Source of the DNA: a virus | IMG/VR virus record: IMGVR_UViG_3300044515_000031 | Location: 1-44,563 of that record | Strand: one strand, 5' to 3' | DNA length: 44,563 nt | Shown here: piece after piece, positions 2,731-44,563 of the stretch | Numbering within the stretch: position 1 is the stretch's first letter | Layout of the letters: the number at the start of each line of letters is the position of its first letter | Notes under the pieces: generated by a model | The model's input: only the letters and a program-made list of their open reading frames with translations | What the model was told of the DNA's origin: nothing | The model's database searches: none | Position numbers and translations under genes: made by a program

Positions 2731-4866
2731 TCAAAGCTTCCCCCCACGACGAGGTACAACGGCGTTCTGCGCGAGATCTCGGCTGCCGAGGCCAAGAACC
2801 TCGACGAGCGCGGCATCCCAAAACACCTGGGCCCGCTCCAGCGCAAGGTCCAGCTCTCCGGCTACGACAAGGAAACCAACACCGTCACCATGGCCGTAAG
2901 CTCGTCGACGCCGGTCGAGCGTTACTTCGGCGCCGAGATACTGTCGCACGAAGCTGGAGCCATCAACACAGAACGCCTCAAGGCCGGCATCCCGCTTCTC
3001 TTCAACCACGACTACGACGCGCATCTGGGCCGTTCGCAAAGCTTCAAGGCGGGCGATCCACTGCACGTCACCTGCCGCTTCGGCACGAATCCCCTGGCGA
3101 TTGAGAAGGCCGGCGACGTCGATACCGGCATCCTGGTCGACGTCTCGATCGGCTACATCGTCGACGAGTGGGAGATCGAGGAGAACGCCAAGACCGGCGA
3201 ACGCAAGTACACCGCGACCAAGTGGACGCTGCTCGAAGTGTCGCTCGTCACCGTTCCGGCCGATCCCACTGTGGGCGTCGGCCGCTCGTCAGATCCCGCG
3301 CCCAATGTCCGCTCGTTCCGCAAGGTCAACGACGACGGCGAAGAAGTCGACGACGAGGATGGCGCCGCCGACGCCGATGACGAAGGCGATCGCTCCCAAC
3401 AGGCCGAACCGGCCCCAATTTTAGAAACACCCACTCCAGAAGCACAAAGGACAACCACCATGGAACCCGTCACCGCTCCCGTAGTCCCCGTCGGCCCCGA
3501 TCCGGCGGTTGTTGAAGCCAACCGTCAACAGGCCCTCCGGGCGCTGCACACGAATCATCCCAAACACTTCTCCGCAGAGCGCTTGGCTGCCGCCATCGCG
3601 CTGGGTGTCGACAACCGCAAGGCCTCGGACGCTGTTTTCGACGCCATTGTTGCCGAGGCATCGCAAACCGATGTCCCGACCATCGCGGACGAAGTTCTCG
3701 GCCGCATGAGCGAGGGGGAGCAGAAGCGCTACTCCCTACGCAACGTCTACGCCGCGGCCGTCAACGCACGCACGCCTGGCACGTTCGGCGACAAAGAGTC
3801 CGAAGCCGGCCTCGAGAAGGAAGTCGGTGAAAGTCTGCGGAAGCTTGCTACAGAGCGCGGTATCACCGCTTTTGGCGGCGGCATCCCGATTCCCAGCGCC
3901 ACCAGCCGGGCTCTCGCACAGATCCGTACCATCGCCTCCGGCGGCGGCGCGGGCACGGCAACGAACTTCACCACTGTCGAAGCCGACCCGATTGAGCTGC
4001 TTCGGTACATCACCGGTGTGCTCTCTCTGGGCGCGCGCATGATGCCCAATCTGCAGGGCACGATCCAGATGCCCCGCCAGACGGCAGCCGCGACCAGCTC
4101 GTGGATCCCTGAAGCAAGCGCGGTCACCAACAGCGATCCGACCTACGACTCGATCAGCATGTCGCCCAAGCCGCTGATGATTCAGAACAGCTACTACCGC
4201 AACTTCCTCGCGCAGTCGCGGATGTCGATCGAGTCGGAACTCAGCAACGATCGCATGAAGGTTCTTGCTCGCTCGCTCGACACGGCTGCTATCGCCGGCG
4301 CAGGAACCGGTGTCATCCCTCTCGGGGTGCTCCTCCGCTCCGGACTGGCTGCCGTTCTCGCAGGATCCACCCGTTCTGCCCTGGGTGTGTTCACCGCCGG
4401 CGCTGGCGGCGTTCCGATGACGTACGTCGACTTCATCGCGATGGAATCGGCGATCGCCACGGCGAACGCCGACATCTCCACGCTCGGCTGGCTGCTCACC
4501 CCCAAGGTACGCGGCGCTGCTCGCAGCACTCCCAAGACCCCGGGCACGGCGAGCGACTTCGTCTTCCCGGATTCGAAGAAGGGCGCCAACGGCATCCAGG
4601 AAGGCCCGCTCAGCTACAACGCACTGGCGACGTCCAACTCGGTACTCACCGGCTTCACGGCGAACAGCGTCACCGGTCTGCATGCCGTCATCCTCGGCGT
4701 GTGGGACCAGCTGATGATCGGCGACTGGGGTCTCAGCGAAGTCATCGCCGACCCGTTCACCGGCGCTTCTTCGCAGAAGATCATCATCACCGAGAACGCG
4801 TTCTACGACATCCAGGTGCGTCATCTGGAATCGTTCTGCGCTTGCGTCTCGGCGCTGCCGAGCTAA
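2728..4866 (+). CDS. Prohead protease (HK97 S78/U35 type) fused to HK97-fold major capsid protein
   Basis: The ORF is open from 2665, with the likely start at ATG 2728. N-terminal protease motifs are LLFNHDYDAHLG (His), VSIGY (Ser) and EVSLVTVPADP. An acidic linker follows. The C-terminal ~400 aa look like an HK97-family capsid protein (SLDTAAIAGAGTGVIPLGVL and others). An in-frame internal ATG at 3460 has AAAGGA 8 nt upstream. Confidence 0.8.
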   Translation: MSKLPPTTRYNGVLREISAAEAKNLDERGIPKHLGPLQRKVQLSGYDKETNTVTMAVSSSTPVERYFGAEILSHEAGAINTERLKAGIPLLFNHDYDAHLGRSQSFKAGDPLHVTCRFGTNPLAIEKAGDVDTGILVDVSIGYIVDEWEIEENAKTGERKYTATKWTLLEVSLVTVPADPTVGVGRSSDPAPNVRSFRKVNDDGEEVDDEDGAADADDEGDRSQQAEPAPILETPTPEAQRTTTMEPVTAPVVPVGPDPAVVEANRQQALRALHTNHPKHFSAERLAAAIALGVDNRKASDAVFDAIVAEASQTDVPTIADEVLGRMSEGEQKRYSLRNVYAAAVNARTPGTFGDKESEAGLEKEVGESLRKLATERGITAFGGGIPIPSATSRALAQIRTIASGGGAGTATNFTTVEADPIELLRYITGVLSLGARMMPNLQGTIQMPRQTAAATSSWIPEASAVTNSDPTYDSISMSPKPLMIQNSYYRNFLAQSRMSIESELSNDRMKVLARSLDTAAIAGAGTGVIPLGVLLRSGLAAVLAGSTRSALGVFTAGAGGVPMTYVDFIAMESAIATANADISTLGWLLTPKVRGAARSTPKTPGTASDFVFPDSKKGANGIQEGPLSYNALATSNSVLTGFTANSVTGLHAVILGVWDQLMIGDWGLSEVIADPFTGASSQKIIITENAFYDIQVRHLESFCACVSALPS

Positions 4867-4884
4867 AAGACAAAACCCCACGAA

Positions 4885-4911
4885 GGGGACGGGCGCAACA
4901 ATCCCGTCCCC
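4885..4911 (+). promoter_or_regulatory. GC-rich stem-loop immediately after the capsid gene (possible attenuator or RNA-stability element)
   Basis: GGGGACGGG, a 9-nt loop, then CCCGTCCCC. No clear T-run follows. Confidence 0.4.
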
Positions 4912-4952
4912 GCAAATTTCAGCAACGCCACTTCGCTCCAGGAGCTTTCATC

Positions 4953-5303
4953 ATGTCAAGCCGTTTCCTCACCGCCGCAGCGATCGCCCTTTCCGTCAAT
5001 GCTCGATTCCCCGCCTCTGGTGTGATCGAGTCCATCTCAGCCGGCGCCGCCAAGACCATCCTGCCATCCGTCGAGGCCGCGGGCATCCGCAGCTTTGCCG
5101 ATGTGTCGGGCGAGCTGCAGTGGGTCAAGGCCAAAGATCACTTCCTGCTCGCCGGCGAGACCGTTGTGCAGGGAACCTTTGTGCAGGTCCGCGAGGATGT
5201 GGCGAAGGAGCTGTTGCGCATGGACCGTGTCACGACAGTTACCGATGCCGAACTCGCCGAAGCCAAGGCGGCAGAAGCAACGGACTCGAAGGCCAAAGCC
5301 TAA
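4953..5303 (+). CDS. Hypothetical head or connector-associated protein
   Basis: 116 aa. GGAG lies 8 nt upstream of ATG 4953. It sits between the capsid gene and the FII-like gene. Confidence 0.55.
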   Translation: MSSRFLTAAAIALSVNARFPASGVIESISAGAAKTILPSVEAAGIRSFADVSGELQWVKAKDHFLLAGETVVQGTFVQVREDVAKELLRMDRVTTVTDAELAEAKAAEATDSKAKA

Positions 5304-11184: not shown

Positions 11185-11882
11185 GCGCGCACGCCGAAGA
11201 CTTCCATCAGCGCCTCGTCCCATCGCTTTTGGAGCTGGACATCGATCGCCTGGGCGACGTCGTCCTGCAGGTGCAGCCGCTTGCGGATGTTGGCGTGCGT
11301 GACGAAAACGTACATCGGCAGCGCGGCGTTCGGCGGATCGTTCACCTGGCGGGCCATAATGCCCTTCTTGCCACTCTTGAACCGGACCAGGAAGAAGTAG
11401 TAGCCGCGCGTCTGGGCGTTGCCGCGTACCGTTTTTCCACGTCTGTTGACGTAATTTCCACTGAGGCTGGCGTAGCCCAGCATTGCTTTCGGGCGCAGCC
11501 AGTCGGGGATGATCTTGTCCTGGCCGCCGATGAGCTGATAGAGGAACTTCGTCGGAATGGCGATGTGCTGCCGTCCCTGGATCGGGACGCGTTCCCGCCC
11601 GTCTTCCTGGCCAACCAGGTAGTCGGGCGCGCCGGTCTGACGGTTCGCCGTGTCGGTGTAGACCTCGGCAACCAGGTCTGTCTTCTTGGCCGGCGTAATT
11701 TTAGTGTTCCGTACGGTCCAGTCATTTCGATTGCGGAAGACGGCGCCCTCTTCCTTGCGGCCCGCCGCCTGCCCATCCTGGGCGACCTTCGTGAGCGTCA
11801 GGGCGATAGCGAACGGGAGCTGGCGGTTCTTCTCGTCGATGTCTTTGGTCAGCGGATCGAAGTCGGCCTTGAGGTTGATCAC
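11181..11882 (-). CDS. Hypothetical protein on the opposite strand inside the tail module
   Basis: The ORF is open to 12107. The likely start is GTG 11882, with GGAGGA 10 nt upstream on the minus strand. Third-position GC is high and composition is balanced (K/D/E/N/Y/F). Its stop shares the CTAG at 11181-11184 with the convergent gene. Confidence 0.65.
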   Translation of the reverse strand: MINLKADFDPLTKDIDEKNRQLPFAIALTLTKVAQDGQAAGRKEEGAVFRNRNDWTVRNTKITPAKKTDLVAEVYTDTANRQTGAPDYLVGQEDGRERVPIQGRQHIAIPTKFLYQLIGGQDKIIPDWLRPKAMLGYASLSGNYVNRRGKTVRGNAQTRGYYFFLVRFKSGKKGIMARQVNDPPNAALPMYVFVTHANIRKRLHLQDDVAQAIDVQLQKRWDEALMEVFGVRA

Positions 11883-11901
11883 GAAATCATGATCCTCCGA
11901 T

Positions 11902-12300
11902 TTGCCGGAAAGCGGCAATCTGCCCGATAACCTCGGCGTGGATTTCCCCCAGCTAACCCGTAAGCCGAAGCTCGCGACGCGCGGCACGACCATCGATCCC
12001 ACGCTGCGCGACTCGCTTGAGAATGGCATGGAGTCGACGCGCGCGCGCTGGACCAGGCGGCGGCGGCAGTGGGAAGTGTCGATCGATCTTCTGACGCCCG
12101 CGGACAAAGACCGGCTGGATGAATTCGTGGAGCTCGAGGCCGTCTACGGCGCCAACATCTTCGTCTTCCCCGACGAACGCGATCCGCACAATCCGGCTTA
12201 CTACTTCGTCCGCTTCAGCACACTGCCCGCGTTCTCGGATGCCGGCAACGTCGAGGGCCAGTTCCGCCAGAACTGCACCTTCACCATCCGGGAGGTGTGA
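11902..12300 (+). CDS. Minor tail protein, lambda gpM-like
   Basis: 132 aa with a TTG start. RARWTRRRRQWEVSIDLLTPADKDRLDEFVE...IFVFPDE...YYFVRF matches the layout of gpM/DUF2460-type distal tail proteins. It lies directly before the L-like gene. Confidence 0.55.
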   Translation: MPESGNLPDNLGVDFPQLTRKPKLATRGTTIDPTLRDSLENGMESTRARWTRRRRQWEVSIDLLTPADKDRLDEFVELEAVYGANIFVFPDERDPHNPAYYFVRFSTLPAFSDAGNVEGQFRQNCTFTIREV

Positions 12301-21660: not shown

Positions 21661-24600
21661 ATGCTCAAGCTCGTGACGCGATCGCTCGCACGCCTCATCT
21701 TCGGACTTCTCATTCTCGGCCTGGCCATCTCCGCGCATGCGCAGTCGCCGCCGACCCTGATCAACTTTCTCGGCTCCGGCTGCTTTAAGGACGCGTCGGG
21801 CACGGCGATCCAGAACGGTGAGCTTCGGATCCAGCCCTCGAGCGCATTCAAGTTCGGCAGCGGCGGCCAGGGATCGTCCGATGTCATCGTTCGCACCATC
21901 ACGGCCGGCAGCATGGATAGCACGCTGCAGCTCGCGAACCCTGCGCTCACTTCGCCGTTGAGCATCGGCTTCACGGTCTGGGTAAAGAACCTCCGCACCA
22001 ACAACGTCGACGTATACAAGAACGTGCCGATCGCGCCAGACGGCAGCGGCAACTTCGACTGGTGCCAGCTGAACACAGGTTTCTATGTCCCCAACGTTCC
22101 GCACGCCGTTCTCGTCGGACCGCCCGGACCACAAGGACCACAGGGAGCCGCCGGCACCGGCGGCACCGGGAGCGGCTTTACGCTACGGGGTGCCTGGGCG
22201 CCATCGACGACTTACGCAGCTGCGGACATTTTGACCAACGGCGGCCAGACTTACGAGGTCGCAACCGGCTTTACTTCGGGAAGCGTCTTCGCCGCCACGA
22301 ATTTATCGCTCTGGGCTGCGAAGGGAGCGGACGGCGCTCCGGGTGCAACTGGATCTGCAGGCGCAACTGGATCTGCTGGGGCCACCGGAGCAACAGGCGC
22401 AACCGGAGCTACCGGGCCAGCAGGACCGACTGGACCAACTGGACCAACCGGATCCGCTGGGGCAACCGGATCCGCAGGGGGAACCGGCGCGACAGGCGCT
22501 CCAGGTGCGAACGGGTCGACGTGGTTTGCGGCGGCCGGCGCGCCATCCAACGGCGCTGACGCTGTAGGTGATTTCTACCTCAACACCACGACAGGCGACG
22601 TGTCGCAAAAAACCGCGCCAACCACATGGACCTTTCGCGAGAACATCATGGGCCCAGCTGGGCCAACCGGACCTACGGGTTCGACTGGAGCCACCGGACC
22701 CACAGGACCGACAGGGCCAACCGGCGCCACCGGTTCTACGGGTGCAACAGGCGCGCCGGGCGCAGGTGGAACAGTAAACACGCAAACGGCGGGCACTGGC
22801 GGCGTCACGGTCAACACGTTTGTATCTACCGACACCTCCGCACCCAGCAAGTTCATCACTTCGGGCCTGGGCTCTGTCGGCAGCGGCGTGGCGCTATCGA
22901 GCGCGGCCGCAAACTCAACCTTCACGCTCTCCGATCCTGTTGGCACGGTCCAGGTCACCACGGACGCGGGCGGCGCGATCGCGGGGCACCTCATCGGTGG
23001 AAGCACGGCCACAGCAGGTCTCGCGATGGACCTGGCCCAGACATCCTCGCTCAACATCTGCATCGAGACGGGGATCTTCGGCACAGCGTTGACCACAGTT
23101 TCAGGCGGAGCACTGGTTACCGTGAATCCGCGCAGTCGGGGGTCCAACGGCCACAAGGTTTGCACGGTCAACGGCACTGCTGTACCCAGCGCAGGCTACG
23201 CTTCAGCTTATGTGACCAGCTTCGCGCGAAGCCTTGACTACACAGCGGTCGGGACTTCGATCACGAACCAGACCGGCGCAAGCAACGTCACTGTGGGTCC
23301 GAACAACACGACTTTTGCCGGTTCGATTGGCTACAGGCTTGGAGGCGTCTTCACAAACGGCGGTATCAGTGGTGGTGAGACGTCGGACATTCAAAAGCTG
23401 GCTATATATCAAATCCCCTATATCCCGGCGAAGCGCGCTCCGCTCATGACCCTTGAGGACGCTACGAACAATGCAAACGAGACGGCCGGCTTCTCTGCGG
23501 CCCGGTGCGCGAGCTCCACGCCAGTGTGTCTAGCCCTCTACAGCATTCAGCACCAGGCAGCGATGGCCTTCATGAGCATCCCGTCGGACAATTACAACGG
23601 CACGACGCTGACGCTGGCCTGGGCTTCAACTACAACCTACCTGAGCGGCGACGTGGCATCTTCGGGTGGCCTCAACTACATCGCCACCGGCGGTGTCAGC
23701 AATGCCGCAGCGAACCTCAACAAGACACCAGCTTCCAATGCGGGTTACTGGTCTATCTATGTTCCGCCGACCTATTACAAGATAGGAGCGCAGACCTCGA
23801 CGAACATCACTGGCGCCTTCATCCCGGACGTTTCGCTCTCGTCGTCGAACGTGAGCAACACGCCGCAGGCGCTGGGAGAAATCTCGTCTGCGAACGGCGC
23901 GAGCATTATGCTCTCGGTGCCGACTCCGGCTGGCAACCCCATCGAGTTCGTCCATCGCATCATGGACGGCAACGGCGGGACAGCGAGTGTCACTATCGAC
24001 GGCTCCGCGCCCTCATCTAACTCCACGATCAATGGGTTCGCGGCAGGAAGCGCCGTCATCAAGTCGTTCTCGCAGGCAAACAATGACACCTATGCGCTGA
24101 TCTCCTACCCCACGACGGCAACGGGCGCGGCTTGCATCCCGGCGACGAGCGCCCTGACGTCCAATGTGGCGACGGTCACCTGCACAACCGCTTTTACTGG
24201 ATCCGTCAATCAGGCTGTTTCGTTTCTGAACATGAACAACCTGGCATTCCTGAACGGGCTGAGCCTCATCGTTCAGTCTGTCTCCGGCACCAGCTTTACC
24301 GTCAACTTCACCCACGCCAATGTTACTTCTGCGGCCGAGGTGAACTATGCGACGGCGACACCCGGTCATGCTTTGCTGGTGACCGTCTCTTCCACGCCGA
24401 CCGATGTGAGCATTACCAACGTTGCCGTCGCAGCGAATGTTGTGACGCTGACAGCGACCAACACTCTGACGGCCGGTCAGTCGATCCTTATCCACGGCCT
24501 CGGAACGGCGACCTTCCTGAACGGCGTGACGCTCAACATCACCTCGCGGACGGGAACGACGATTACGGCGGCTGGCACTGCCAGCGGCGCGGGCAATGGC

Positions 24601-32021: not shown

Positions 32022-33483
32022 GGTGGCAGCAGCAGTACTGGAACGGGGCCCGGAAAATTCCGGCGAACGATTTACTCTCTTCGTCCTGGCTTTCCAGGCA
32101 GACGACCTCGGCTTCTATGCCGAGGAAATAAAGATTCTTCAAAAAGACCTGTCGTGCTCGAAGGAGACGATCCTTCGACATCTGGCCAGCCTAGAGAAGC
32201 AGGGCTGGCTGCGGATCGAGCGGCGCGTTCTCGGCGGGCGAAGCAGCGTGTACTTCGTGAACCTGGAGAAGCTCGGCGTCCGGGTCGGGGAGAAGCCGTA
32301 CAAGCACAAGCTCTGGGCGGATATGGAGCGCATGCGCTCGGCGCTGGACCGAGGTAACAAATTGTCACGTCAGAACGGCACCCTGAAATTCGAGCAATTC
32401 GCGGAATCCGGGGAGGTTGAGGCCAGTGGCGACCTCTTCGAAGAGGAAATCTCAGGTGACAATTTGCCACCTGACAATGAGCAAGAATCTGCTCCTGAAG
32501 AGGGCGAAACAGACGATTCCGAGGAGTTTGAGGCCCAAACCGCCCAAAATGAGGGTGAAACGGTCTACCGGAAGGAACAGGAGCCTCCGGAGGAAGAAAT
32601 CTCAGGTGGCAAATTGCCACCTGTCAGGTACGGAAATAGTCACCTGTCAGGTGGCAATTTACCGGACCCCTTTAATACAAGTCGTAAGAGTCGTACTTTC
32701 GTAGAAACAACTACCCCCCTACCCCCCGTCCCGGGGGATGGCGGCGATGAGTTGATTTTGCCGAAGGACGATCTTCGCGTCGGCGATGCCGAGTTCCCTC
32801 TCGCGATCGGCGTGGCCGCTCGCTGGGTGATGCAAAAACGCGGCTTGTCAAAGCGGCGGCTGCAGGACACCATCGCCGAGCAGCTCGCGCTGTTCTGCCG
32901 GCAGGAAGATAAAAACCTGCAGGAGGCCGCGCAGATCGCGGCGGCGAACCATGAGAAATACACGGCCGACGTTCCCCTGCTCCGCTTCGGGCCGTGGAGT
33001 CCAGCGAATTTTTACGGCGAGGGCCACTGGCGGAATCCGTCGGCGTGGCCATACGACCAGGCCAAGGTCCGCGCCTCGTCCGAGGCTGCGATCGGGATGC
33101 AGAAGCTCGCCGCCAGCGAAACCGACGCCGAGTACCGAGTTCGCGTCGCCGAGTTCATCGACGGGAATGCCGATCGTCTGGCGGAGATCGGCGGCTTCGA
33201 CGGTGTCGTCGCGAAGCTGCGAGCCCTGCCGCAGGAGATGGACCTCGGCGCCCTCGACATCGAGCTCGACGACATCGAGAGCGAAATGATCAAGGCGGCG
33301 TGGGGTAGCTCGGAACCCGCAGTGCTCGCCACGCGGCAAGTCGTCGAAGCGGAGATATCCGTCGAGAAGGGATATCCGAAGGATTCGATCAACCGGCTCC
33401 GGCTCCAGGTCCTCTCCGGTCGCCTGTTCGGCAAACACGAGTTTCCGCGGCTCACGCTGCGCTGCATTCCGCGGAGAACCTGA
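32011..33483 (+). CDS. Replication initiator (N-terminal winged-helix, lambda O-like organisation with internal origin)
   Basis: 490 aa. The start is ambiguous (TTG 32011 or GTG 32023). The N-terminus FTLFVLAFQADDLGFYAEEIKILQKDLSCSKETILRHLASLEKQGWL is an HTH_36/DnaD-like wHTH. Iterons lie in the acidic linker. Confidence 0.75.
   Translation: MSVKVAAAVLERGPENSGERFTLFVLAFQADDLGFYAEEIKILQKDLSCSKETILRHLASLEKQGWLRIERRVLGGRSSVYFVNLEKLGVRVGEKPYKHKLWADMERMRSALDRGNKLSRQNGTLKFEQFAESGEVEASGDLFEEEISGDNLPPDNEQESAPEEGETDDSEEFEAQTAQNEGETVYRKEQEPPEEEISGGKLPPVRYGNSHLSGGNLPDPFNTSRKSRTFVETTTPLPPVPGDGGDELILPKDDLRVGDAEFPLAIGVAARWVMQKRGLSKRRLQDTIAEQLALFCRQEDKNLQEAAQIAAANHEKYTADVPLLRFGPWSPANFYGEGHWRNPSAWPYDQAKVRASSEAAIGMQKLAASETDAEYRVRVAEFIDGNADRLAEIGGFDGVVAKLRALPQEMDLGALDIELDDIESEMIKAAWGSSEPAVLATRQVVEAEISVEKGYPKDSINRLRLQVLSGRLFGKHEFPRLTLRCIPRRT
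32447..32668. repeat. Origin-like iterons inside the rep gene (half-site CAGGTGGCAA / TTGCCACCTG)
   Basis: There is an imperfect palindrome at 32453-32473, a perfect 21-bp palindrome CAGGTGGCAAATTGCCACCTG at 32603-32623, and a third half-site at 32648-32657. CACCTGTCAGGT is repeated at 32618 and 32641. A relatively AT-rich stretch follows at 32666-32715. Confidence 0.7.
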
Positions 33484-33539
33484 GCACCTGGGTACTTAGG
33501 TTCCTAAGCGCCTAAGCACCTAAGCACCCGAAGTTCCTG
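33484..33539 (+). repeat. Iteron cluster A: 7 phased 8-bp units (GYNCYTAR), forward orientation
   Basis: GCACCTGG GTACTTAG GTTCCTAA GCGCCTAA GCACCTAA GCACCCGA AGTTCCTG. The cluster starts 1 nt after the rep stop and ends 44 nt before the parA ATG. Confidence 0.85.
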
Positions 33540-33582
33540 AACTACAGAGCTGTAAACCCATTGAGCACCAGGAGCGTATCGA

Positions 33583-34179
33583 ATGAACCTCACCATAGCT
33601 GGAGATAAAGGCGGCGTCGGCAAGACTACGACGGCGCTGTGCCTGGCAGCGTACCTCAACACGCTGGCCCCGACGCTGCTGCTGGACGGCGATCGCACCA
33701 AGAATGCGGTCAACTGCGCGCGGCGGCGGCTGGACTTTCCGTTCCGCGTCGAGCCGATCGAGGCGGGGCCGATGCTGGCTCGGCAGTTCGAACACATCGT
33801 CACCGACACCGGTCAGTCCCCTACTCTCCAGCAACTGAAAGCGGCGGCCGACTGGTGCGACCTGCTGGTGATCCCGGCGAAGGCGGCGTGGTTCGACACC
33901 AACAGCCTGGCGCAGACGATCCAGTCGCTGCACGAGTTGAAGGTTACGAAGTATCGCGTGCTACTGACCCACGTCGCTCCCGACGAGGCGGCCGAGGCGC
34001 TGGAGCTGCGCCGGCTGCTGGCGTCGATTGGAGCTCCGGTCTTTCTCACCGAGATCCCGCGGCTGAAGGCCTTCAAGAAAGCGGCCGACGCCGGCACGAT
34101 CGTAAGCGCGTCGACGGACAAGAACGGCGCCCGGGCCTGGGCGGCATACGAAGCTGTCGGAAAGGAGCTCGGTCTATGA
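33583..34179 (+). CDS. parA: Small ParA-type partition ATPase (type Ib, ParF-like size)
   Basis: 198 aa with a deviant Walker A (GDKGGVGKTTTA). It lacks an N-terminal HTH. AGGAG lies upstream. Confidence 0.9.
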   Translation: MNLTIAGDKGGVGKTTTALCLAAYLNTLAPTLLLDGDRTKNAVNCARRRLDFPFRVEPIEAGPMLARQFEHIVTDTGQSPTLQQLKAAADWCDLLVIPAKAAWFDTNSLAQTIQSLHELKVTKYRVLLTHVAPDEAAEALELRRLLASIGAPVFLTEIPRLKAFKKAADAGTIVSASTDKNGARAWAAYEAVGKELGL

Positions 34180-34493
34180 AGGATAGAGTCTCGAACCTCG
34201 AAAGCGCATTCGCCGGGATGAGCCGTGCGGCCGAGTCCCCACACGCTCAAGCACCTAAGCGCTCAGGTGCTCAGGTACCTAAGCCCCTAAGCACCGGAGC
34301 GCCTAAGCGCCCAAGCACCCAGGCGCTCCCGCTTCAGGGTACAGGCAAAAGCAGCCATCCCGACTTTGAGGCGTTCAAGGTCTATCTGCGCACGGCCACG
34401 AAGCGGGCGGCCGCGCGGAAGTTCGAGGACGAGACCGGCGGCGACTTCTCGGATCTGTGCGAGAAGCTGCTGGCCGAGTACTTAGGCGCTTAG
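34176..34493 (+). CDS. Small partner protein of ParA (centromere-binding protein candidate, ParG-like size)
   Basis: 105 aa with an ATGA overlap to parA. The middle is an 8-aa-periodic Pro/Lys-rich segment encoded by iteron cluster B. The C-terminal ~45 aa (FEAFKVYLRTATKRAAARKFEDETGGDFSDLCEKLLAEYL) could be an RHH fold. Confidence 0.7.
   Translation: MKDRVSNLESAFAGMSRAAESPHAQAPKRSGAQVPKPLSTGAPKRPSTQALPLQGTGKSSHPDFEAFKVYLRTATKRAAARKFEDETGGDFSDLCEKLLAEYLGA
34243..34338 (+). repeat. Iteron cluster B: about 12 phased 8-bp units, forward orientation, inside the coding sequence
   Basis: ACGCTCAA GCACCTAA GCGCTCAG GTGCTCAG GTACCTAA GCCCCTAA GCACCGGA GCGCCTAA GCGCCCAA GCACCCAG GCGCTCCC GCTTCAGG. 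Confidence 0.85.
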
Positions 34494-34533
34494 GGCGCTA
34501 GGTGCTTAGGTGCCTGAGTACCTAAGCCCCGGA
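34482..34533. repeat. Iteron cluster C: five reverse units (TTAGGNGC type) then two forward units
   Basis: TTAGGCGC TTAGGGCG CTAGGTGC TTAGGTGC CTGAGTAC, overlapping GTACCTAA GCCCCGGA. Orientation switches at GTAC 34518-34521. The cluster spans the stop at 34491-34493 and ends at the SD of the next gene. Confidence 0.8.
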
Positions 34534-34542
34534 AGGAGCGAG

Positions 34543-34758
34543 ATGAAGATAACGATCGAATCAACGGACATCATTACGGACATCGATGGGGTCATGTGCC
34601 GCGTGTGGCGCGGCGTGACCGAACGCGGTGTGCAGTGTGATCTGGCTATCCCTCGGCTGCGTGTGTTGCGTGAAGACGACCATCGGGAGTTTGAAGACGA
34701 ACTGGCGGCGCTGCCTTCAGGCCGGATGCCGCCACGCAATTTCGAGGATAGGTTTTAG
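34543..34758 (+). CDS. Hypothetical small protein flanked by iteron clusters C and D
   Basis: 71 aa. GGAAGGAG lies upstream of ATG 34543. Confidence 0.55.
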   Translation: MKITIESTDIITDIDGVMCRVWRGVTERGVQCDLAIPRLRVLREDDHREFEDELAALPSGRMPPRNFEDRF

Positions 34759-34802
34759 GGGCTTAGGGCGTTAGGCGCTTAGGTACCTGAGTACCTGGGC
34801 GA
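34755..34802 (-). repeat. Iteron cluster D: 6 phased 8-bp units, reverse orientation
   Basis: TTAGGGGC TTAGGGCG TTAGGCGC TTAGGTAC CTGAGTAC CTGGGCGA. This is the mirror image of cluster A. Confidence 0.85.
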
Positions 34803-34817
34803 GAAAGCAGGGAACTA

Positions 34818-35096
34818 ATGGAGAAGGAAATAGCTGTAGTGGCGATGGGTGAGCTCGTACGGGTGATGGTGAAGTCCATCGTCGACGAGCCGAACGAAGT
34901 GACGGTTTCGGTGGATACGCGGAACGTCGGTCGCGTGCTGCTGACCGTGGATGTAGCGCCGAACGACCTTGGCAAGGTGATCGGGAAGCAAGGCAGGAAC
35001 GCGCGCGCGTTGCGAACGATCCTGGGAGCGGCTGGCATGGCCTTCGGAGTGCCGTCGTCGCTGAACATCCGGGAAGGCGACGGCGATGCCCACTGA
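34818..35096 (+). CDS. KH-domain RNA-binding protein (KhpA/YlqC-like)
   Basis: 92 aa. LVRVMVKSIVDEPNEVTVSVDTRNVGRVLLTVDVAPNDLGKVIGKQGRNARALRTIL matches the UPF0109/KhpA pattern, including the GKVIGKQGR (GxxG) loop. Confidence 0.75.
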   Translation: MEKEIAVVAMGELVRVMVKSIVDEPNEVTVSVDTRNVGRVLLTVDVAPNDLGKVIGKQGRNARALRTILGAAGMAFGVPSSLNIREGDGDAH

Positions 35097-35742: not shown

Positions 35743-36110
35743 GCGATCCGAATATTAAAGAATTACTTGAAGAGCAATTACGACTGGCAAAGGATTTTCC
35801 GCGCGCCAACTTCGGGCTTCTCCACGGCCACGACTATCCAGAGATCGCACGCTCGGCTCTAAGCAGCGCCGACGTTTGTAGAGATCTACTCATGAACTAT
35901 GTGATGAGTTCCATTCGATCTGGCGAAGTCGCTGAAAGCATAAACCCCGGGGCTTTCCAAGATTCGCGTGAGATTGTGCAGCGAAATACGATTCTGCACG
36001 ATCAGGCGCTCAAGTACTTATATTTAGGCATTCAAATCGGGCGCGCGCTTGAGAAACAAGTAGCAGAAGCACTGCTATCGCTTGCTGAGGAAGAGAGCAA
36101 AAACCGATGA
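35739..36110 (+). CDS. Hypothetical protein (visibly lower-GC segment)
   Basis: 123 aa with ATGA overlaps at both ends. Confidence 0.6.
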   Translation: MSDPNIKELLEEQLRLAKDFPRANFGLLHGHDYPEIARSALSSADVCRDLLMNYVMSSIRSGEVAESINPGAFQDSREIVQRNTILHDQALKYLYLGIQIGRALEKQVAEALLSLAEEESKNR

Positions 36111-36523
36111 GGACGATTGGGATGAAGCCTGGAGATTTTGTTTTGGTGATTGAGCATCGCGACAACGAGCAGCTTGTCCATAAAGGTCTGGCCGTGAGTC
36201 TTTCGATGGACGAGCAGCTCGCCGGCGCCGACGGTCAGTGCGCGATCACGGCGTCGTTTGTGGGGCCGCTGGGCGGCGTGTCGATCGAGGACGTCGTCCA
36301 CATCTCGCACCGCGACTGGATCGAGGGCCGCGCCGGCCTGGCGTACGAGGATCTGCCACATCCGCTGATGGGCGTTTGCCGCTTCTGTCTCTGTACCGAG
36401 CAGCGCGCGTGCCCCTGCGGCTGCAGCTGGCTCGATCTGGATGGTACGGCGTGCTCGGCGCCGGAATGCAAAGCAAAGTTCATAGCCGAGTACCAGGCGT
36501 TTGGGGAGGTTATCCATGGCTAA
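36107..36523 (+). CDS. Hypothetical protein with a Cys-rich C-terminus
   Basis: 138 aa. The C-terminus reads CRFCLCTEQRACPCGCSWLDLDGTACSAPEC. Confidence 0.6.
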   Translation: MRTIGMKPGDFVLVIEHRDNEQLVHKGLAVSLSMDEQLAGADGQCAITASFVGPLGGVSIEDVVHISHRDWIEGRAGLAYEDLPHPLMGVCRFCLCTEQRACPCGCSWLDLDGTACSAPECKAKFIAEYQAFGEVIHG

Positions 36524-36770
36524 GTCGAAGAAGCTCGTTTGGCGCAAGCGGCCGGAGCCGCACCTACAGATGATCGTGGTTGCATTCCACATTGGCGAGT
36601 GGACTATGGCCGAAGTAGATGAGCCGTGCGTGACCTGCAAATTCGGGACGCTTCGCCGGTTTACGTTTTGCAGTCCAGACTCCTATATCCCAACATCGCC
36701 ACGTCCGTTCCACATGAAATGCGCTCTGAAGAAGCTATTCGCTGAAGCGATAGGAATGAAAATCTCATGA
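36516..36770 (+). CDS. Hypothetical protein
   Basis: 84 aa from ATG 36516, with GGGGAGG upstream. It has an ATGA overlap with the next gene. Confidence 0.5.
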   Translation: MAKSKKLVWRKRPEPHLQMIVVAFHIGEWTMAEVDEPCVTCKFGTLRRFTFCSPDSYIPTSPRPFHMKCALKKLFAEAIGMKIS

Positions 36771-38575
36771 AGAAAAGCCGCCTGCATATATCGAAGAACT
36801 TCAGTTTGCCGATCGATCTCGTGACGTCGACGCAAGCCATCCTCGCCCGCAAGCGCAGTGGCAAGAGCTATCTCGCCCAGGTCGAAACGGAAGAGATGCT
36901 CGAGCAGGGCGCGCAGGTTGGCGTCTTCGATCCGACGGGTGCGTGGTGGGGATTGAAGTCGTCGGCCGACGGTAAGAGCGCCGGCTATTCGATCGTCATC
37001 TTCGGCGGCCGGAACGCCGACGCGCCGCTGGACTTCAGGGCAGGGAAGGCGATGGCTACCGCGTTCCTCGATCGCGGCTTCTCGGCCGTGTTCGATATCT
37101 CGCTGTTCACGCTTCCTCAGCAGCTGCAGTTCGTGATGGAGTTCTGCGACGAGATCCTGCGCGTCAACCGAAATGCTCTGCACTTGGTCATCGATGAGGC
37201 CGATACGTTTGCCCCGCAAACGCCGCGCAGCAAACCCGCCGGCGAATGCCTGGGAACGGTTTCGAGACTGGTTAGCCAGGGCGGCCTCGGCGGCACGGGC
37301 GTGACGATGATCACGCAGCGATCGGCGAAGATCAACTGGGATGTACTGAGCCAGATCGATATATTGACGGTCCTGCGCATGGGAGCGCCGCTTGATATCA
37401 AGCCGGTGGTGTCGTGGCTGCAGACGAACACGACGCCAGAGTTCGCCGCGGAGGTGGGCGCTGCACTGCCGTCGCTGCCTGTGGGAACGGCCTTCATTGC
37501 GTCGGCACACCTGGAGATAGCCAATCGCGTCGAGGTCCGCCAGAAGCGCACATTCAACTCAGGAGCAACGCCGAAGCCGGGCGAACGGAAGATCGTCCCC
37601 AAGGTGTTTGCGGAGGTCGACGCCAAGAAGCTCGGCGAGCAGATCGCGGGGTCGATCGCTGCTGCCAAGGCAAACTCGCCCGACGAGCTGAAGGCGCGGA
37701 TCCGCGAGCTCGAGCGCCAGGTGGCGAGACCGGCCGCGGCGCCGGTGATAGTCCAGAAGCCTGCGCCAGAATCACAAATCGACAAGGAGAATCTGCGGAT
37801 GCTCGTAAAAAAGCTGGATGCACTGAGTCAGGCTGTAAACGAAGCTACTGAGCTGGCCCAGGCAGACGAGGACCGCAGGACGCGCGCCGTTGCTTTGCTG
37901 GCCGAGCTGCAGAAACTCCTAACTCCGCCATCGTCACTTTCCAAGGTTTTGAAAAAAGCGGGGGAGACAAAGGATGTTGCCCAAGCGCTGGTACCGGCGC
38001 AGGTCCGGGAGCGTGAACAATCTGCACCAACTCCCAAGCCTGTCCGTGCTCCGGCACCCGTGCAAGCGGGAGATCGGAGCCTGGATGGTCCCGAGTCGCG
38101 CGTCCTCGATAACATCGCATGGCTCGTGGACAGCGGCGTCGAGGATCCTGAATCGGAGTTAGTGGCGTTTCTCTCGGGCTATAGCACGTCTACTTCGACC
38201 AGTTTCAAGAATCCCCGCTCGAGACTGAAGGAACGCGGGATGATTATCTATCCCACGCCTGGGCGCCTTCGCCTGACTGATGAGGGCAGAGCAGCAGCCA
38301 ATCGCGGCAACGCTCCTATGACGATCGAGCATCTACATGCTGCGATATTTGCGCAGCTCCCTGGCCCCGAAGAAAAAATGCTCCGGCTTTTGTTGGCGAG
38401 TTATCCGGAATCTATTACTTCTGAGTTACTCGCTGAGAAGACCGGGTATTCGACGCCTACTTCGACCAGCTTCAAAAATCCACGCAGCCGGCTGAAGTCC
38501 CTGGGCTTTGCGGAGTATCCAACCAGCGGCGTCGTGCGGGCCACCGAGCTGCTGTTTCCGGCGGCGCTGCGATGA
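36767..38575 (+). CDS. HerA/DUF87-like P-loop ATPase fused to a coiled-coil linker and two tandem C-terminal winged-helix modules
   Basis: 602 aa. Motifs are a Walker A ARKRSGKS followed by VGVFDPTGAWW, a Walker B LHLVIDEAD, and ITQRSAKINWDVLSQIDILTVLRM. Two ~89-aa repeats end in GYST(S/P)TSTSFKNPRSRLK...G. Confidence 0.75.
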   Translation: MKKSRLHISKNFSLPIDLVTSTQAILARKRSGKSYLAQVETEEMLEQGAQVGVFDPTGAWWGLKSSADGKSAGYSIVIFGGRNADAPLDFRAGKAMATAFLDRGFSAVFDISLFTLPQQLQFVMEFCDEILRVNRNALHLVIDEADTFAPQTPRSKPAGECLGTVSRLVSQGGLGGTGVTMITQRSAKINWDVLSQIDILTVLRMGAPLDIKPVVSWLQTNTTPEFAAEVGAALPSLPVGTAFIASAHLEIANRVEVRQKRTFNSGATPKPGERKIVPKVFAEVDAKKLGEQIAGSIAAAKANSPDELKARIRELERQVARPAAAPVIVQKPAPESQIDKENLRMLVKKLDALSQAVNEATELAQADEDRRTRAVALLAELQKLLTPPSSLSKVLKKAGETKDVAQALVPAQVREREQSAPTPKPVRAPAPVQAGDRSLDGPESRVLDNIAWLVDSGVEDPESELVAFLSGYSTSTSTSFKNPRSRLKERGMIIYPTPGRLRLTDEGRAAANRGNAPMTIEHLHAAIFAQLPGPEEKMLRLLLASYPESITSELLAEKTGYSTPTSTSFKNPRSRLKSLGFAEYPTSGVVRATELLFPAALR

Positions 38576-39075
38576 AGGTCGACTTCATTATTTTGCGTAG
38601 CGTTTATGCCTCCCGAGTGTTCTTGATCGAATGGCTGTCATTCACGCGAAGAGGCATCGAACGGTCGATGATTGCGATCTACTTCCTTTGCATGATGGCC
38701 TTCCATATCGCTCCTCCATCGGGACATCTATGGTTCGGGCTCGCAGTGTATGGCCTCGTCGCCTTCGGCATGTGGCTGGAGCACAAGCGGGACAATCGCT
38801 CACGCATTTTCAAGATGATGATGAGGGAGTGGGTCATCGGACGGATATCGTTTGCAGCTTTCAATGTCGCCAACAGCCTCGGTTTCTTGTACGCATTCCC
38901 TTTTTTGATCGCTCTGCTGGCTTGTACAGGGTTAGGCATGTGGATATTGTTGCAATACTCCACGTCGCTGCCCGACGGGGACGAAGTCCCGGGCAGGCGC
39001 CGGAAGATTGCAGCGGCCGAGCTCAAGAAGCTGTTCGGGACGAGCTGGATGCCAGCGCCCCAGGGCCAAACCTAA
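38572..39075 (+). CDS. Multi-pass (about 4 TM) membrane protein translationally coupled to the ATPase; lower-GC segment
   Basis: 167 aa with an ATGA overlap. Hydrophobic helices are IAIYFLCMMAFHIA, LWFGLAVYGLVAFGMWL, ISFAAFNVANSLGFLYAF and LIALLACTGLGMWILL. Confidence 0.7.
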   Translation: MKVDFIILRSVYASRVFLIEWLSFTRRGIERSMIAIYFLCMMAFHIAPPSGHLWFGLAVYGLVAFGMWLEHKRDNRSRIFKMMMREWVIGRISFAAFNVANSLGFLYAFPFLIALLACTGLGMWILLQYSTSLPDGDEVPGRRRKIAAAELKKLFGTSWMPAPQGQT

Positions 39076-39686
39076 CTCAGGTTGTCGATGTGGGTATGTC
39101 GCGGGTTAGTGAGGAAGCGATGTAGCTCGGGCGTCCAGCCGGCCGCATCGTTCGGCAGGTTGTCGTATATGGCCTTGGCCATGTGGTCGCAGACGAAGCC
39201 GAGTAGACCTGGCTTGTAACCAGCGGCCGCGCGGATCCGCTTCTCCGGGCATGTGCAGGTGTATTTGTTCAGGTCGACGGTCCAGGTTCGATTGCTGACG
39301 GCCGTGGTGCCAATCTTGTAGACGGCGTTCTGCAGAGGGAACGCCGGCAACTCGGTTGAGTAAGTCGGCTGTGCGTGGATGCTGGGTTGGTGGCCGGTGC
39401 TGAGTTGCTCGACCTCGATGACGCGTTCCGCGCGCAGTGTTTTGAAGCGGCCGCCATGCATTACACCCAGGTAGGGCGTCCCGGCGACGTCGCCGATCTT
39501 CAGCAGCTCGATAGTGCGATCGCTGCGTTCGTTGTCGCGATCGACATAAACGACGCGATAACGCTCCCGAGGATCGAGGATGCGAGTCCAGTTGACGGTG
39601 TCGGTGACGTTCTTGCCCAAGCCTGGTGCTGTACGAGGAGCTGGGCGCTTGCGGCGGTAGTCGGGGCGGGAAGGGAAGTCGGCCAT
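39072..39686 (-). CDS. WYL-like domain + SWIM zinc-finger protein
   Basis: 204 aa. RYRVVYVDRDNERSDRTIELLKIGDVAGTPYLGVMHGGRFKTLRAERVIEVEQL fits the WYL-domain pattern. YTCTCPEKRI...GFVCDHMAKAI fits the SWIM CxC...CxH pattern. Its stop overlaps the convergent gene's stop (CTAA). Confidence 0.65.
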   Translation of the reverse strand: MADFPSRPDYRRKRPAPRTAPGLGKNVTDTVNWTRILDPRERYRVVYVDRDNERSDRTIELLKIGDVAGTPYLGVMHGGRFKTLRAERVIEVEQLSTGHQPSIHAQPTYSTELPAFPLQNAVYKIGTTAVSNRTWTVDLNKYTCTCPEKRIRAAAGYKPGLLGFVCDHMAKAIYDNLPNDAAGWTPELHRFLTNPRHTHIDNLS

Positions 39687-39772
39687 GTGGCCGATATGGT
39701 GTCACCGCTGTGGAAAAGTTAGCAAGACTACTAACTTGTTCGTTTTCTTCGTCTAAGATATGCAGACCATCC

Positions 39773-39973
39773 ATGAGCGCACCGAATAAGCACACGGGCA
39801 AAGCACCCCTACAGCGGTCGAACCTGCCACGGCAGCGCAAATCCATGCGGTTGGAGATGAGATGGCCTGTGTACCGGCAACTTCTCGACATGCGGTATGG
39901 CGAAGAGTCGGTGGTAGAGGCCGTTGAGCGGCTGGTGCTGTCGGCTCAACCGCTGCGCAACGTGTGCGAGTAA
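39773..39973 (+). CDS. Small hypothetical protein, possible ribbon-helix-helix
   Basis: 66 aa from ATG 39773. RLEMRWPVYRQLLDMRYGEESVVEAVERLV looks like a beta-strand followed by helices. Confidence 0.4.
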   Translation: MSAPNKHTGKAPLQRSNLPRQRKSMRLEMRWPVYRQLLDMRYGEESVVEAVERLVLSAQPLRNVCE

Positions 39974-39981
39974 CTACACCA

Positions 39982-39997
39982 AAGTATGTACATACTT
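39982..39997. promoter_or_regulatory. Perfect 16-bp palindrome AAGTATGTACATACTT
   Basis: Read directly. It lies in the 64-nt gap between 39973 and the 40038 start and is AT-rich in a GC-rich genome. Confidence 0.5.
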
Positions 39998-40037
39998 CGT
40001 GTAAAGCGCTAGTTCGGCGTGCGATGCTACGCCAACC

Positions 40038-44325: not shown

Positions 44326-44563
44326 ATGGCCAAACTCACCGCGACGATCACGTGCTCGGTCAGGGCCAGCTTTCTACTGCTCTGGTTGAAGCGCTTGGAG
44401 ATCGAAGTTCCTCCGCCTCTCGGCCATCACCATTCGCTCAGCTTCGCGCAATTTGGGAGCGACGAAAAGGGTTGGGAAGACCGCCTCTGCTTGGAGGTGA
44501 GGGCGAGCAATGGTTCGCAGAAGTTCTTCCTCAATGATCAGGACATGGTCCCCGAAACGTTCG
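44326..44563 (+). CDS. 5' part of the junction-spanning small ORF (continues at 128..171 of the window)
   Basis: ATG 44326 follows GGAGG at 44317-44321. See feature 1..171. Confidence 0.45.
   Translation, partial: MAKLTATITCSVRASFLLLWLKRLEIEVPPPLGHHHSLSFAQFGSDEKGWEDRLCLEVRASNGSQKFFLNDQDMVPETF
44437..44563. repeat. Terminal direct repeat, copy 2 (identical to 1..127)
   Basis: Same as copy 1. Confidence 0.95.

Follow-up and report, generated by a model that had tools for sequence, protein, structure and literature searches.

A stand-alone HerA-clade ATPase with tandem winged-helix modules, a candidate site-targeted DNA motor of temperate phages and plasmids

The stretch of viral DNA analyzed here (IMG/VR record IMGVR_UViG_3300044515_000031, positions 1 to 44,563), which we call the window, carries at 36767..38575 a gene for a protein of 602 amino acids (P0001; plus strand, as for its subregions and the adjoining gene given below). 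We are highly confident that this protein is a HerA-clade ATPase in which the catalytic core is followed by a long stalk, a linker and two C-terminal winged-helix (WH) modules. Additionally, we found that selection maintains a likeness between the recognition segments of both WH modules in each protein, even as these segments diverge across the family. With about even confidence we read the protein as a member of a very large, uncharacterised family of stand-alone HerA-clade ATPases, which would act as site-targeted motors for double-stranded DNA (dsDNA) on the DNA of the element that carries them. The original prediction, made from the sequence of the window, had treated the ATPase as one unit with a membrane protein encoded directly behind it. 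This pairing did not hold.

Architecture of the ATPase

The P-loop ATPase core comprises residues 1-270 (36767..37576). The two open reading frames (ORFs) from which the original prediction started, that of the ATPase and the adjoining one at 38572..39075, are both present, as are all the motifs it had quoted, and its assignment of a HerA-type core is borne out by sequence profiles, invariant catalytic residues and the fold. ARKRSGKS (residues 27-34) is the Walker A motif, LHLVIDEAD the Walker B motif and ITQRS the 'TQR' motif of the FtsK-HerA ATPases. K33, D143, E144, Q184 and R185 are invariant in an alignment of 40 homologues. The PADLOC HerA model matches the 602-residue protein at 1e-10, and the family profile matches the HerA chains of the PDB at 1e-13 to 1e-10, with HerA-NurA at 1e-13. 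Indeed, all PDB profile matches belong to the HerA clade (HerA-NurA, anti-phage HerA, YjgR, TdpA and STIV B204) and no FtsK or TrwB chain is among them; Pfam FtsK_SpoIIIE does not match the protein, and FtsK-gamma gave no match in Pfam or in the PDB. The AlphaFold model has a mean predicted local distance difference test (pLDDT) value of 87. With this model Foldseek retrieves HerA 4d2i at 5e-12, STIV2 B204 with a template modelling (TM) score of ~0.7 and the PH1 ATPase with a TM score of 0.77.

When the single sequence is used, the matches are weak: Pfam DUF87 stays under its cut-off, NCBIfam HerA reaches 34 bits against a cut-off of 970 and HerA_antiphage 12.7 bits against a cut-off of 800. 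The sole library model that aligns across the entire ATPase core is PADLOC mad8 (PDLC04140; E 2.7e-8, residues 23-269 against 30-311 of 314), while the top PHROG match is PHROG 2666, labelled 'terminase large subunit'. Canonical HerA is defined by an N-terminal HAS barrel. This barrel is absent here, as HerA chains align only from their residues ~135-175 onward, past the barrel, and the model contains only two short strands ahead of the core. A transmembrane segment was not found in the ATPase either, the maximum 19-residue hydropathy being 1.37.

Behind the core follows a near-invariant extended segment, RTFNSGATPKPGE...PKV.A.VD..KLG (also written TFNSGATPKPGE), at residues 257-295 (37535..37651), in which T262, S265, G266, T268, P269, G272, P278, D285, L289 and G290 are invariant in 40 sequences. 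It is modelled as coil with a pLDDT of 85-90 and may be an inter-subunit brace or a docking arm. The long helical, coiled-coil-like stalk (residues 286-399, 37622..37963) is modelled as helices at 286-302, 305-320, 340-385 and 389-399, and the PDB matches to this region are to coiled-coil proteins only. The coiled-coil-like linker of the original prediction thus corresponds to long helices at 286-320 and 340-399, followed by a disordered part. This disordered linker (residues 401-436, 37967..38074) is of low complexity and variable length, with a pLDDT below 50 and gappy, unconserved alignment columns.

The protein ends in two repeats of ~89 residues, whose similarity at the DNA level had been noted before and which profile matches and the model identify as WH modules. 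WH module 1 (residues 438-518, 38078..38320) matches the profiles of DtxR and MarR and shows a helix-helix-helix-hairpin arrangement in the model; WH module 2 (residues 519-602, 38321..38572) matches ArsR and SmtB and is likewise seen in the model. The two repeats are 52% identical over 75 residues (E 6e-19), and Mrr_N is matched in the WH region of 12 out of 25 family members. Modelled alone, the WH pair is packed (pLDDT 93.7, predicted TM score 0.84). A fold search with this pair alone gave no close relative, the top hits being generic WH proteins with a best E of 0.013.

How does this architecture compare with known systems? The HerA proteins of HerA-NurA, Sir2-HerA and DUF4297-HerA belong to the same P-loop clade, share Walker A, Walker B and the (T/S)QR motif and give the best profile and fold matches. 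The present protein, however, departs from two features that define HerA proper, as the HAS barrel is absent and a nuclease partner (NurA, with or without Mre11/Rad50) was not detected, and it carries a C-terminal coiled-coil stalk and two WH modules. The Sir2 or DUF4297 effector that the anti-phage HerA systems require was not detected either, and the score is far below the threshold of their model. Closest in design are FtsK, SpoIIIE and Streptomyces TraB, which combine a ring-shaped dsDNA motor with a C-terminal WH reader on a linker. The 602-residue protein is nevertheless not a member of that family, since its core is not of the FtsK type, a membrane anchor is lacking and each chain has two WH modules rather than one. 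With the packaging NTPases of the STIV2 B204/A32 type it shares the minimal FtsK-HerA core of ~200-250 residues. These are found in membrane-containing viruses, whereas here we deal with a tailed phage that has an HK97-type capsid, a portal and a lambda-type terminase, and with a family that has a long, predicted DNA-binding C-terminal extension and is also carried by plasmids. YjgR (DUF853) is also a stand-alone bacterial HerA-like ATPase, and the NCBI name of one family member is 'DUF853 family protein', but YjgR is matched only weakly (E 0.004 to 11kk), is chromosomal and has no tandem WH tail. Our search for literature on the function of YjgR found nothing informative. Finally, mad8 of the MADS system has only ~314 residues and no WH tail, and the other MADS components, which include a methyltransferase, are absent from the window according to PADLOC. 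The protein stands alone, has no barrel and combines a stalk with two readers. This is unusual for the HerA clade, within which we would class it as a new architectural variant.

Co-variation of the two winged-helix modules

The recognition-helix segments of the two modules, GYSTSTSTSFKNPRSRLK in WH1 (38177..38230) and GYSTPTSTSFKNPRSRLK in WH2 (38444..38497), coincide with the two copies of a 54-nt DNA repeat (D1), which are 76% identical and lie 267 nt (89 residues) apart. For the family we compared WH1 with WH2 over 40 proteins, taking as recognition segment the 23 alignment columns that cover the recognition helix. Within a protein these segments are 69% identical, whereas between orthologues the identity is only 36-40%. 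The rest of the WH fold behaves differently, with 28% identity within a protein against 30-32% between orthologues. When each WH1 is compared with all 40 WH2 modules, the WH2 of the same chain matches it best in 32 of the 40 proteins.

Gene conversion does not account for this likeness, given the low nucleotide identity and the unshared codons. Across 96 distinct proteins the identity of the segment pair is 0.72 at the amino acid level and 0.65 at the nucleotide level, the codon is shared at only 47% of the conserved residues, and not one pair is at least 95% identical in nucleotides. In the window itself, we count 13 nucleotide differences in the 54-nt repeat, of which 12 are synonymous and one changes an amino acid. 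Because the amino acid likeness exceeds the nucleotide likeness and the codons are mostly unshared, we conclude that the two readers are held alike by selection. Their likeness within each protein, together with the divergence between lineages, indicates that both WH modules likely read one lineage-specific target that is repeated; the predicted target is probably a DNA motif present in several copies. The co-variation offers a concrete and testable handle, since it should be possible to predict from the sequence of the helix which DNA motif is bound.

The proposal that the WH pair reads repeated DNA therefore gains support from the recognition helices, while the 8-bp arrays that had been named as a target have a simpler explanation as a partition site. 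The motif of these arrays is CCTAAGC, of which 12 out of 13 copies lie at 33503-34783 (2.7 expected by chance). They form four clusters in both orientations with a period of 8 and flank the gene of a small ParA (33583-34179) and the following gene for a protein of 105 residues (34176-34493). The latter has no Pfam match; judged from its sequence it looks ParG-like, with a flexible N-terminal tail and a ribbon-helix-helix-like C-terminal segment. A small ParA together with a ParG-like protein makes up a self-sufficient partition cassette of type Ib. The arrays are thus probably the site of such a cassette, which, together with the two integrases of the phage, hints at a plasmid-prophage option.

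A second set of repeats belongs to the presumptive origin. The gene at 32023-33483 encodes an O-like replication initiator of 486 residues (phrog_391, 2e-10) and contains two 19-bp palindromes, AGGTGGCAAnTTGCCACCT, at 32454-32472 and 32604-32622. The lambda origin is located inside the O gene, and the palindromes match that arrangement. Similar origin palindromes (AGGTGRCA) occur in the window and in the related locus L070, and yet the recognition segments of the two ATPases are very different (SFKNPRSRLK and TFDDYKSLLK, respectively), from which we conclude that the WH modules are probably not reading the origin.

Family, gene neighborhood and the adjoining membrane gene

A word-indexed search gave 580+ full-length relatives with 40-52% identity, and an exhaustive search gave 15,172 hits, with 6,250 cluster representatives (50% identity) at E<=1e-30. 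The relatives at this threshold nearly all have 560-640 residues and are covered end to end. The family is carried in 62 species genomes of many phyla, including Acidobacteriota, Planctomycetota, Actinomycetota, Nitrospirota, Spirochaetota and Proteobacteria, as well as on 167 IMG/VR viral contigs and 44 plasmids, among them plasmids of Mycobacterium and Tsukamurella and Clavibacter pCSL1. Integrases, portals and terminases mark the prophage contexts, and most members reside in integrated prophages. As the closest relatives come from Acidobacteria, the host phylum of the present phage is likely Gram-negative and non-mycelial. Database labels of the relatives read 'DUF87', 'DUF853', 'HerA-like' or hypothetical, and some of them match PF05872 (HerA_C). 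One relative of 942 residues (P0141) has a LAGLIDADG intein inserted directly after the Walker B region, which suggests that the gene is under strong conservation; beyond this intein, the longer relatives gave no informative domain fusion. If our functional reading is right, a dedicated DNA motor is present in thousands of the temperate phages and plasmids that soil and water bacteria harbor.

Three observations on individual carriers are added here. On a plasmid of M. intracellulare (L148) and on a Tsukamurella plasmid (L151), the ATPase lies directly beside ESX/type VII genes for EccB and the FtsK/SpoIIIE-type EccC. On pCSL1, a small FtsK/SpoIIIE gene is found five genes upstream of the family member. 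Judged by eye, the ATPase gene is roughly two-fold enriched near the ends of IMG/VR contigs, which prophage or cos boundaries could explain.

The window is a complete circular phage genome of ~44.4 kb, as shown by the exact 127-bp direct repeat at 1-127 and 44437-44563, a signature of circular assembly. The phage is temperate and tailed. It has genes for two integrases, a cI/cro-like pair and the small ParA, next to TerS, a lambda gpA-type TerL (1.8e-202), a portal and an HK97-type capsid protein, and its overall GC content is 0.618. A nucleotide search of positions 36000-40000 against GenBank phages gave no match. The ATPase gene sits, as had been proposed, at the end of the early operon, where it is co-oriented with the other genes and shows phage-typical codon usage (GC content at third codon positions, GC3, of 0.72).

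To survey the neighborhood we clustered the ORFs of 143 loci all against all. A fixed partner is absent from these loci: no neighbor exceeds ~20%, and order and side vary. The most frequent neighbor is DUF5131 (29 of 143 loci, in variable order), followed by ParB-like proteins (17), ASCH (14), C5 methyltransferases (11), DnaB (10), two separate HNH clusters (9 and 8), DUF1643 (9) and a small serine recombinase (8). Directly downstream of the ATPase the genes are heterogeneous, with HNH as the top family in a profile census (7/116 loci). The gene directly upstream, analyzed for 119 loci, encodes replication initiators in ~6-8 cases, methyltransferases in 6, ParB-like proteins in 4 and invertases in 4. 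Recombination genes (Erf/YqaJ, AAA_23, DUF3799) were found in 16/143 loci, where they precede the ATPase on its own strand, and one widespread phage has a contiguous Erf-YqaJ-ATPase run. In all 14 loci with a detectable TerL, which is of two types, this gene follows the ATPase at a distance of 1-7 kb and has the same orientation. In L152/L153, from a phage with Mu-type portal and Mu F genes (Portal_Mu, Phage_Mu_F), an Acb2/Tad1-type gene (11839-12246) lies 1.1 kb downstream of the ATPase, with three DNA methyltransferases and DUF5131 on its flanks. The constant position ahead of TerL places the ATPase gene in the early block of replication, recombination and DNA-modification genes.

The ATPase appears to work without a dedicated protein partner. 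Conserved NurA, Sir2 or DUF4297 genes were not found beside it in the 143 loci, and PADLOC and Pfam scans of the neighbors and the other unknown proteins revealed none in this genome. PADLOC reports no complete system in the window, its only matches being HerA and mad8, both to this ATPase, and a weak WYL. In this respect the original prediction, that the locus fits no named system, is confirmed.

The adjoining gene at 38572..39075, the last of the operon, encodes a protein of 167 residues and overlaps the ATPase gene by ATGA (junction GCGATGAAG). It lies outside the conserved unit. A Kyte-Doolittle analysis gives 3-4 hydrophobic segments, so that the predicted count of about four transmembrane segments is plausible if not exact. 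The lower GC content of the gene is also real (0.546 compared to 0.618 for the genome); GC3, however, is unchanged (0.714 compared to 0.718 for the ATPase gene), showing that the dip comes from the hydrophobic amino acid composition and not clearly from foreign DNA. The only hit among 5.8 billion proteins was the protein itself, and there was no match in Pfam, PHROG, PADLOC or NCBIfam. By tblastn the gene is absent from all 64 loci of ATPase relatives that were searched, and in these loci no other neighbor from the window is co-conserved with the ATPase. Since membrane proteins diverge fast, we added a test that is free of homology and counted genes with two or more predicted transmembrane segments. 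Such a gene directly follows the ATPase in 9/126 loci (7.1%), compared to 9.4% among comparable ORFs (p = 0.45). The overlap itself is generic for this operon, because 4-nt overlaps occur at 8/29 same-strand junctions in this part of the genome, the start of the ATPase gene included. The 167-residue protein is a lineage-specific ORFan that lies next to the ATPase by chance, and we are very sure that the ATPase is not paired with this transmembrane gene. The ATPase and membrane-protein 'system' is a false lead and does not belong on lists of candidate defence or exclusion systems.

Beyond the membrane gene, a convergent gene on the minus strand (39072-39686) encodes a protein of 204 residues, and its stop overlaps that of the membrane ORF by 4 nt. 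The product has weak WYL-like (PADLOC 0.005) and DUF7707 matches, and its CxC...CxH motif (CTCPEK...VCDH) is reminiscent of SWIM zinc fingers. A homologue was found in 0/64 loci of ATPase relatives.

Possible functions

How might such a protein work? By homology with other members of the HerA/FtsK superfamily, the ATPase would assemble into a ring, which would use ATP to move along dsDNA or to pull on it. The WH pairs, hanging on flexible stalks, could tether the ring to a repeated, element-specific DNA motif or load it there. The ring would then serve the DNA transactions of the element between replication and packaging; it may be loaded at a repeat array, clear or remodel complexes of protein and DNA, or process branches or ends. 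According to this model it would neither act at the membrane nor form a two-gene defence system. The assignment to the element's own DNA metabolism is tentative, and we place it slightly below even. Going further, it is possible, if somewhat unlikely, that the family represents a new class of site-targeted ring motors, a HerA-clade counterpart of FtsK and TraB with two co-evolving WH readers per subunit, devoted to replication, segregation or transfer. A site-targeted HerA-clade ring motor would, if true, be a role so far undescribed for tailed phages.

Several points weigh against this interpretation. Ring formation, translocation and DNA binding by the WH modules are deduced from homology, and winged helices can bind proteins too. 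The predicted target motif did not emerge from a search for short repeats near the ATPase, other loci included: the strong arrays found there are mostly coding repeats with periods of 6, 9 or 15 nt, and the real iteron clusters belong to neighboring initiator-like genes. The neighborhood is equally rich in genes of DNA modification and counter-defence (methyltransferases, DUF5131, ParB-like, Acb2/Tad1). When GenBank phage proteins were searched with two queries, the window protein and a member from a mycobacterial plasmid, a single record, from an uncultured phage, contained a relative, labelled 'hera helicase'. The family is thus rare among cultured phages and does not fulfil a core function of all phages. 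Literature searches found no paper on any family member.

Among the alternatives, the ATPase and the four-segment membrane protein could form a membrane-anchored DNA conduit or a superinfection-exclusion pair, similar to TraB and SpdB2. Direct 8-bp repeats in clt are the site that TraB reads, four transmembrane helices are predicted for SpdB2, the genes of spd operons are coupled in translation and some actinophages carry Spd homologues (PMC4447253). The ATGA overlap, the 3-4 hydrophobic segments and the 8-bp arrays in the genome fit this picture. We nevertheless regard it as very improbable, because the membrane protein has no homologue and no counterpart at the 64 related loci, genes with several transmembrane segments are not enriched beside the ATPase, the overlap is generic, the core is of the HerA clade and has no transmembrane segment of its own, and the likely host is Gram-negative and non-mycelial. 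The ATPase could also act in conflict, either as a one-gene prophage defence or as a counter-defence factor that protects or masks the DNA of the element or hinders the HerA immunity of the host. To our knowledge, every described HerA defence system requires an effector partner, and such a partner is neither conserved at the loci nor detected in the complete genome. In favor of a role in conflict, the top library matches are anti-phage HerA and mad8, the neighbors are often methyltransferases, DUF5131, ParB-like and ASCH proteins and once Acb2/Tad1, and toxin-antitoxin and Abi genes occur in the plasmid contexts. Conflict systems have been described in which HerA-like ATPases work together with KTSC proteins and nucleases to which they are coupled (PMC9503650), but in our loci KTSC is linked in only two lineages, which led us to reject this coupling. 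The gene is, moreover, co-oriented in the early operon with phage-typical codon usage, and one architecture is kept across thousands of clusters, unlike the patchy distribution of defence cargo. Altogether a function in conflict seems unlikely but not negligible.

The early position of the gene invites a further comparison, that with a replicative helicase or with a helicase loader that serves the O-like initiator. HerA proteins unwind DNA in vitro. The initiator gene with its internal palindromes is present, P, DnaB or DnaC are not recognisable in this genome, and in the viral contigs L070/L071 the ATPase takes the 'lambda P position', starting 69 nt after the end of an O-like initiator of the same PHROG (3721-5262) that contains four CAGGTGACAnnnTGTCACCTG palindromes. 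Ten loci, however, have a separate DnaB beside the ATPase and L002 has an IstB/DnaC-like protein, initiators directly upstream are a small minority as counted above, and the window and L070 combine similar palindromes with different recognition segments. We found no clear homology of the ATPase to a standard replicative helicase or loader, which, according to the original prediction, would have spoken against its proposal if joined by a membrane gene that is not co-conserved; the latter is indeed the case. All in all we give the helicase or loader role a rather low probability. The ATPase might instead drive the partition or segregation of a plasmid or of an extrachromosomal prophage and read the CCTAAGC arrays. 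This is suggested by the 12 copies 2-3 kb upstream of the ATPase, by the occurrence of the family on large plasmids, by the 17 loci with ParB-like neighbors and by the apparent tuning of the twin WH modules to a repeated motif. The arrays, however, flank a ParA and ParG-like cassette that is sufficient by itself, ParA is found in only 1/64 related loci and most members sit in integrated prophages, so that we consider this role improbable. Finally, the place of the gene ahead of the terminase genes could point to an activator of late transcription or an accessory packaging factor. TerL is always downstream on the same strand, the top PHROG match carries the terminase label, and the fold is like that of the B204/A32 packaging NTPases. 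Against this stand the complete lambda-type terminase and portal in the window, the presence of the family on plasmids without virion genes and the several genes that usually lie between the ATPase and the terminase, and we hold such a late function to be highly doubtful.

Two further features of the genome lie apart from these questions. The early operon contains at 34818-35096 a gene for a KH-domain RNA-binding protein of 92 residues (KhpA/B-type). In the tail region, nested tandem repeats of 9, 18 and 27 bp with ACCGGAGCA-like units extend over 22345-22724 and are probably the collagen-like Gly-X-Y stretch of a fibre protein.

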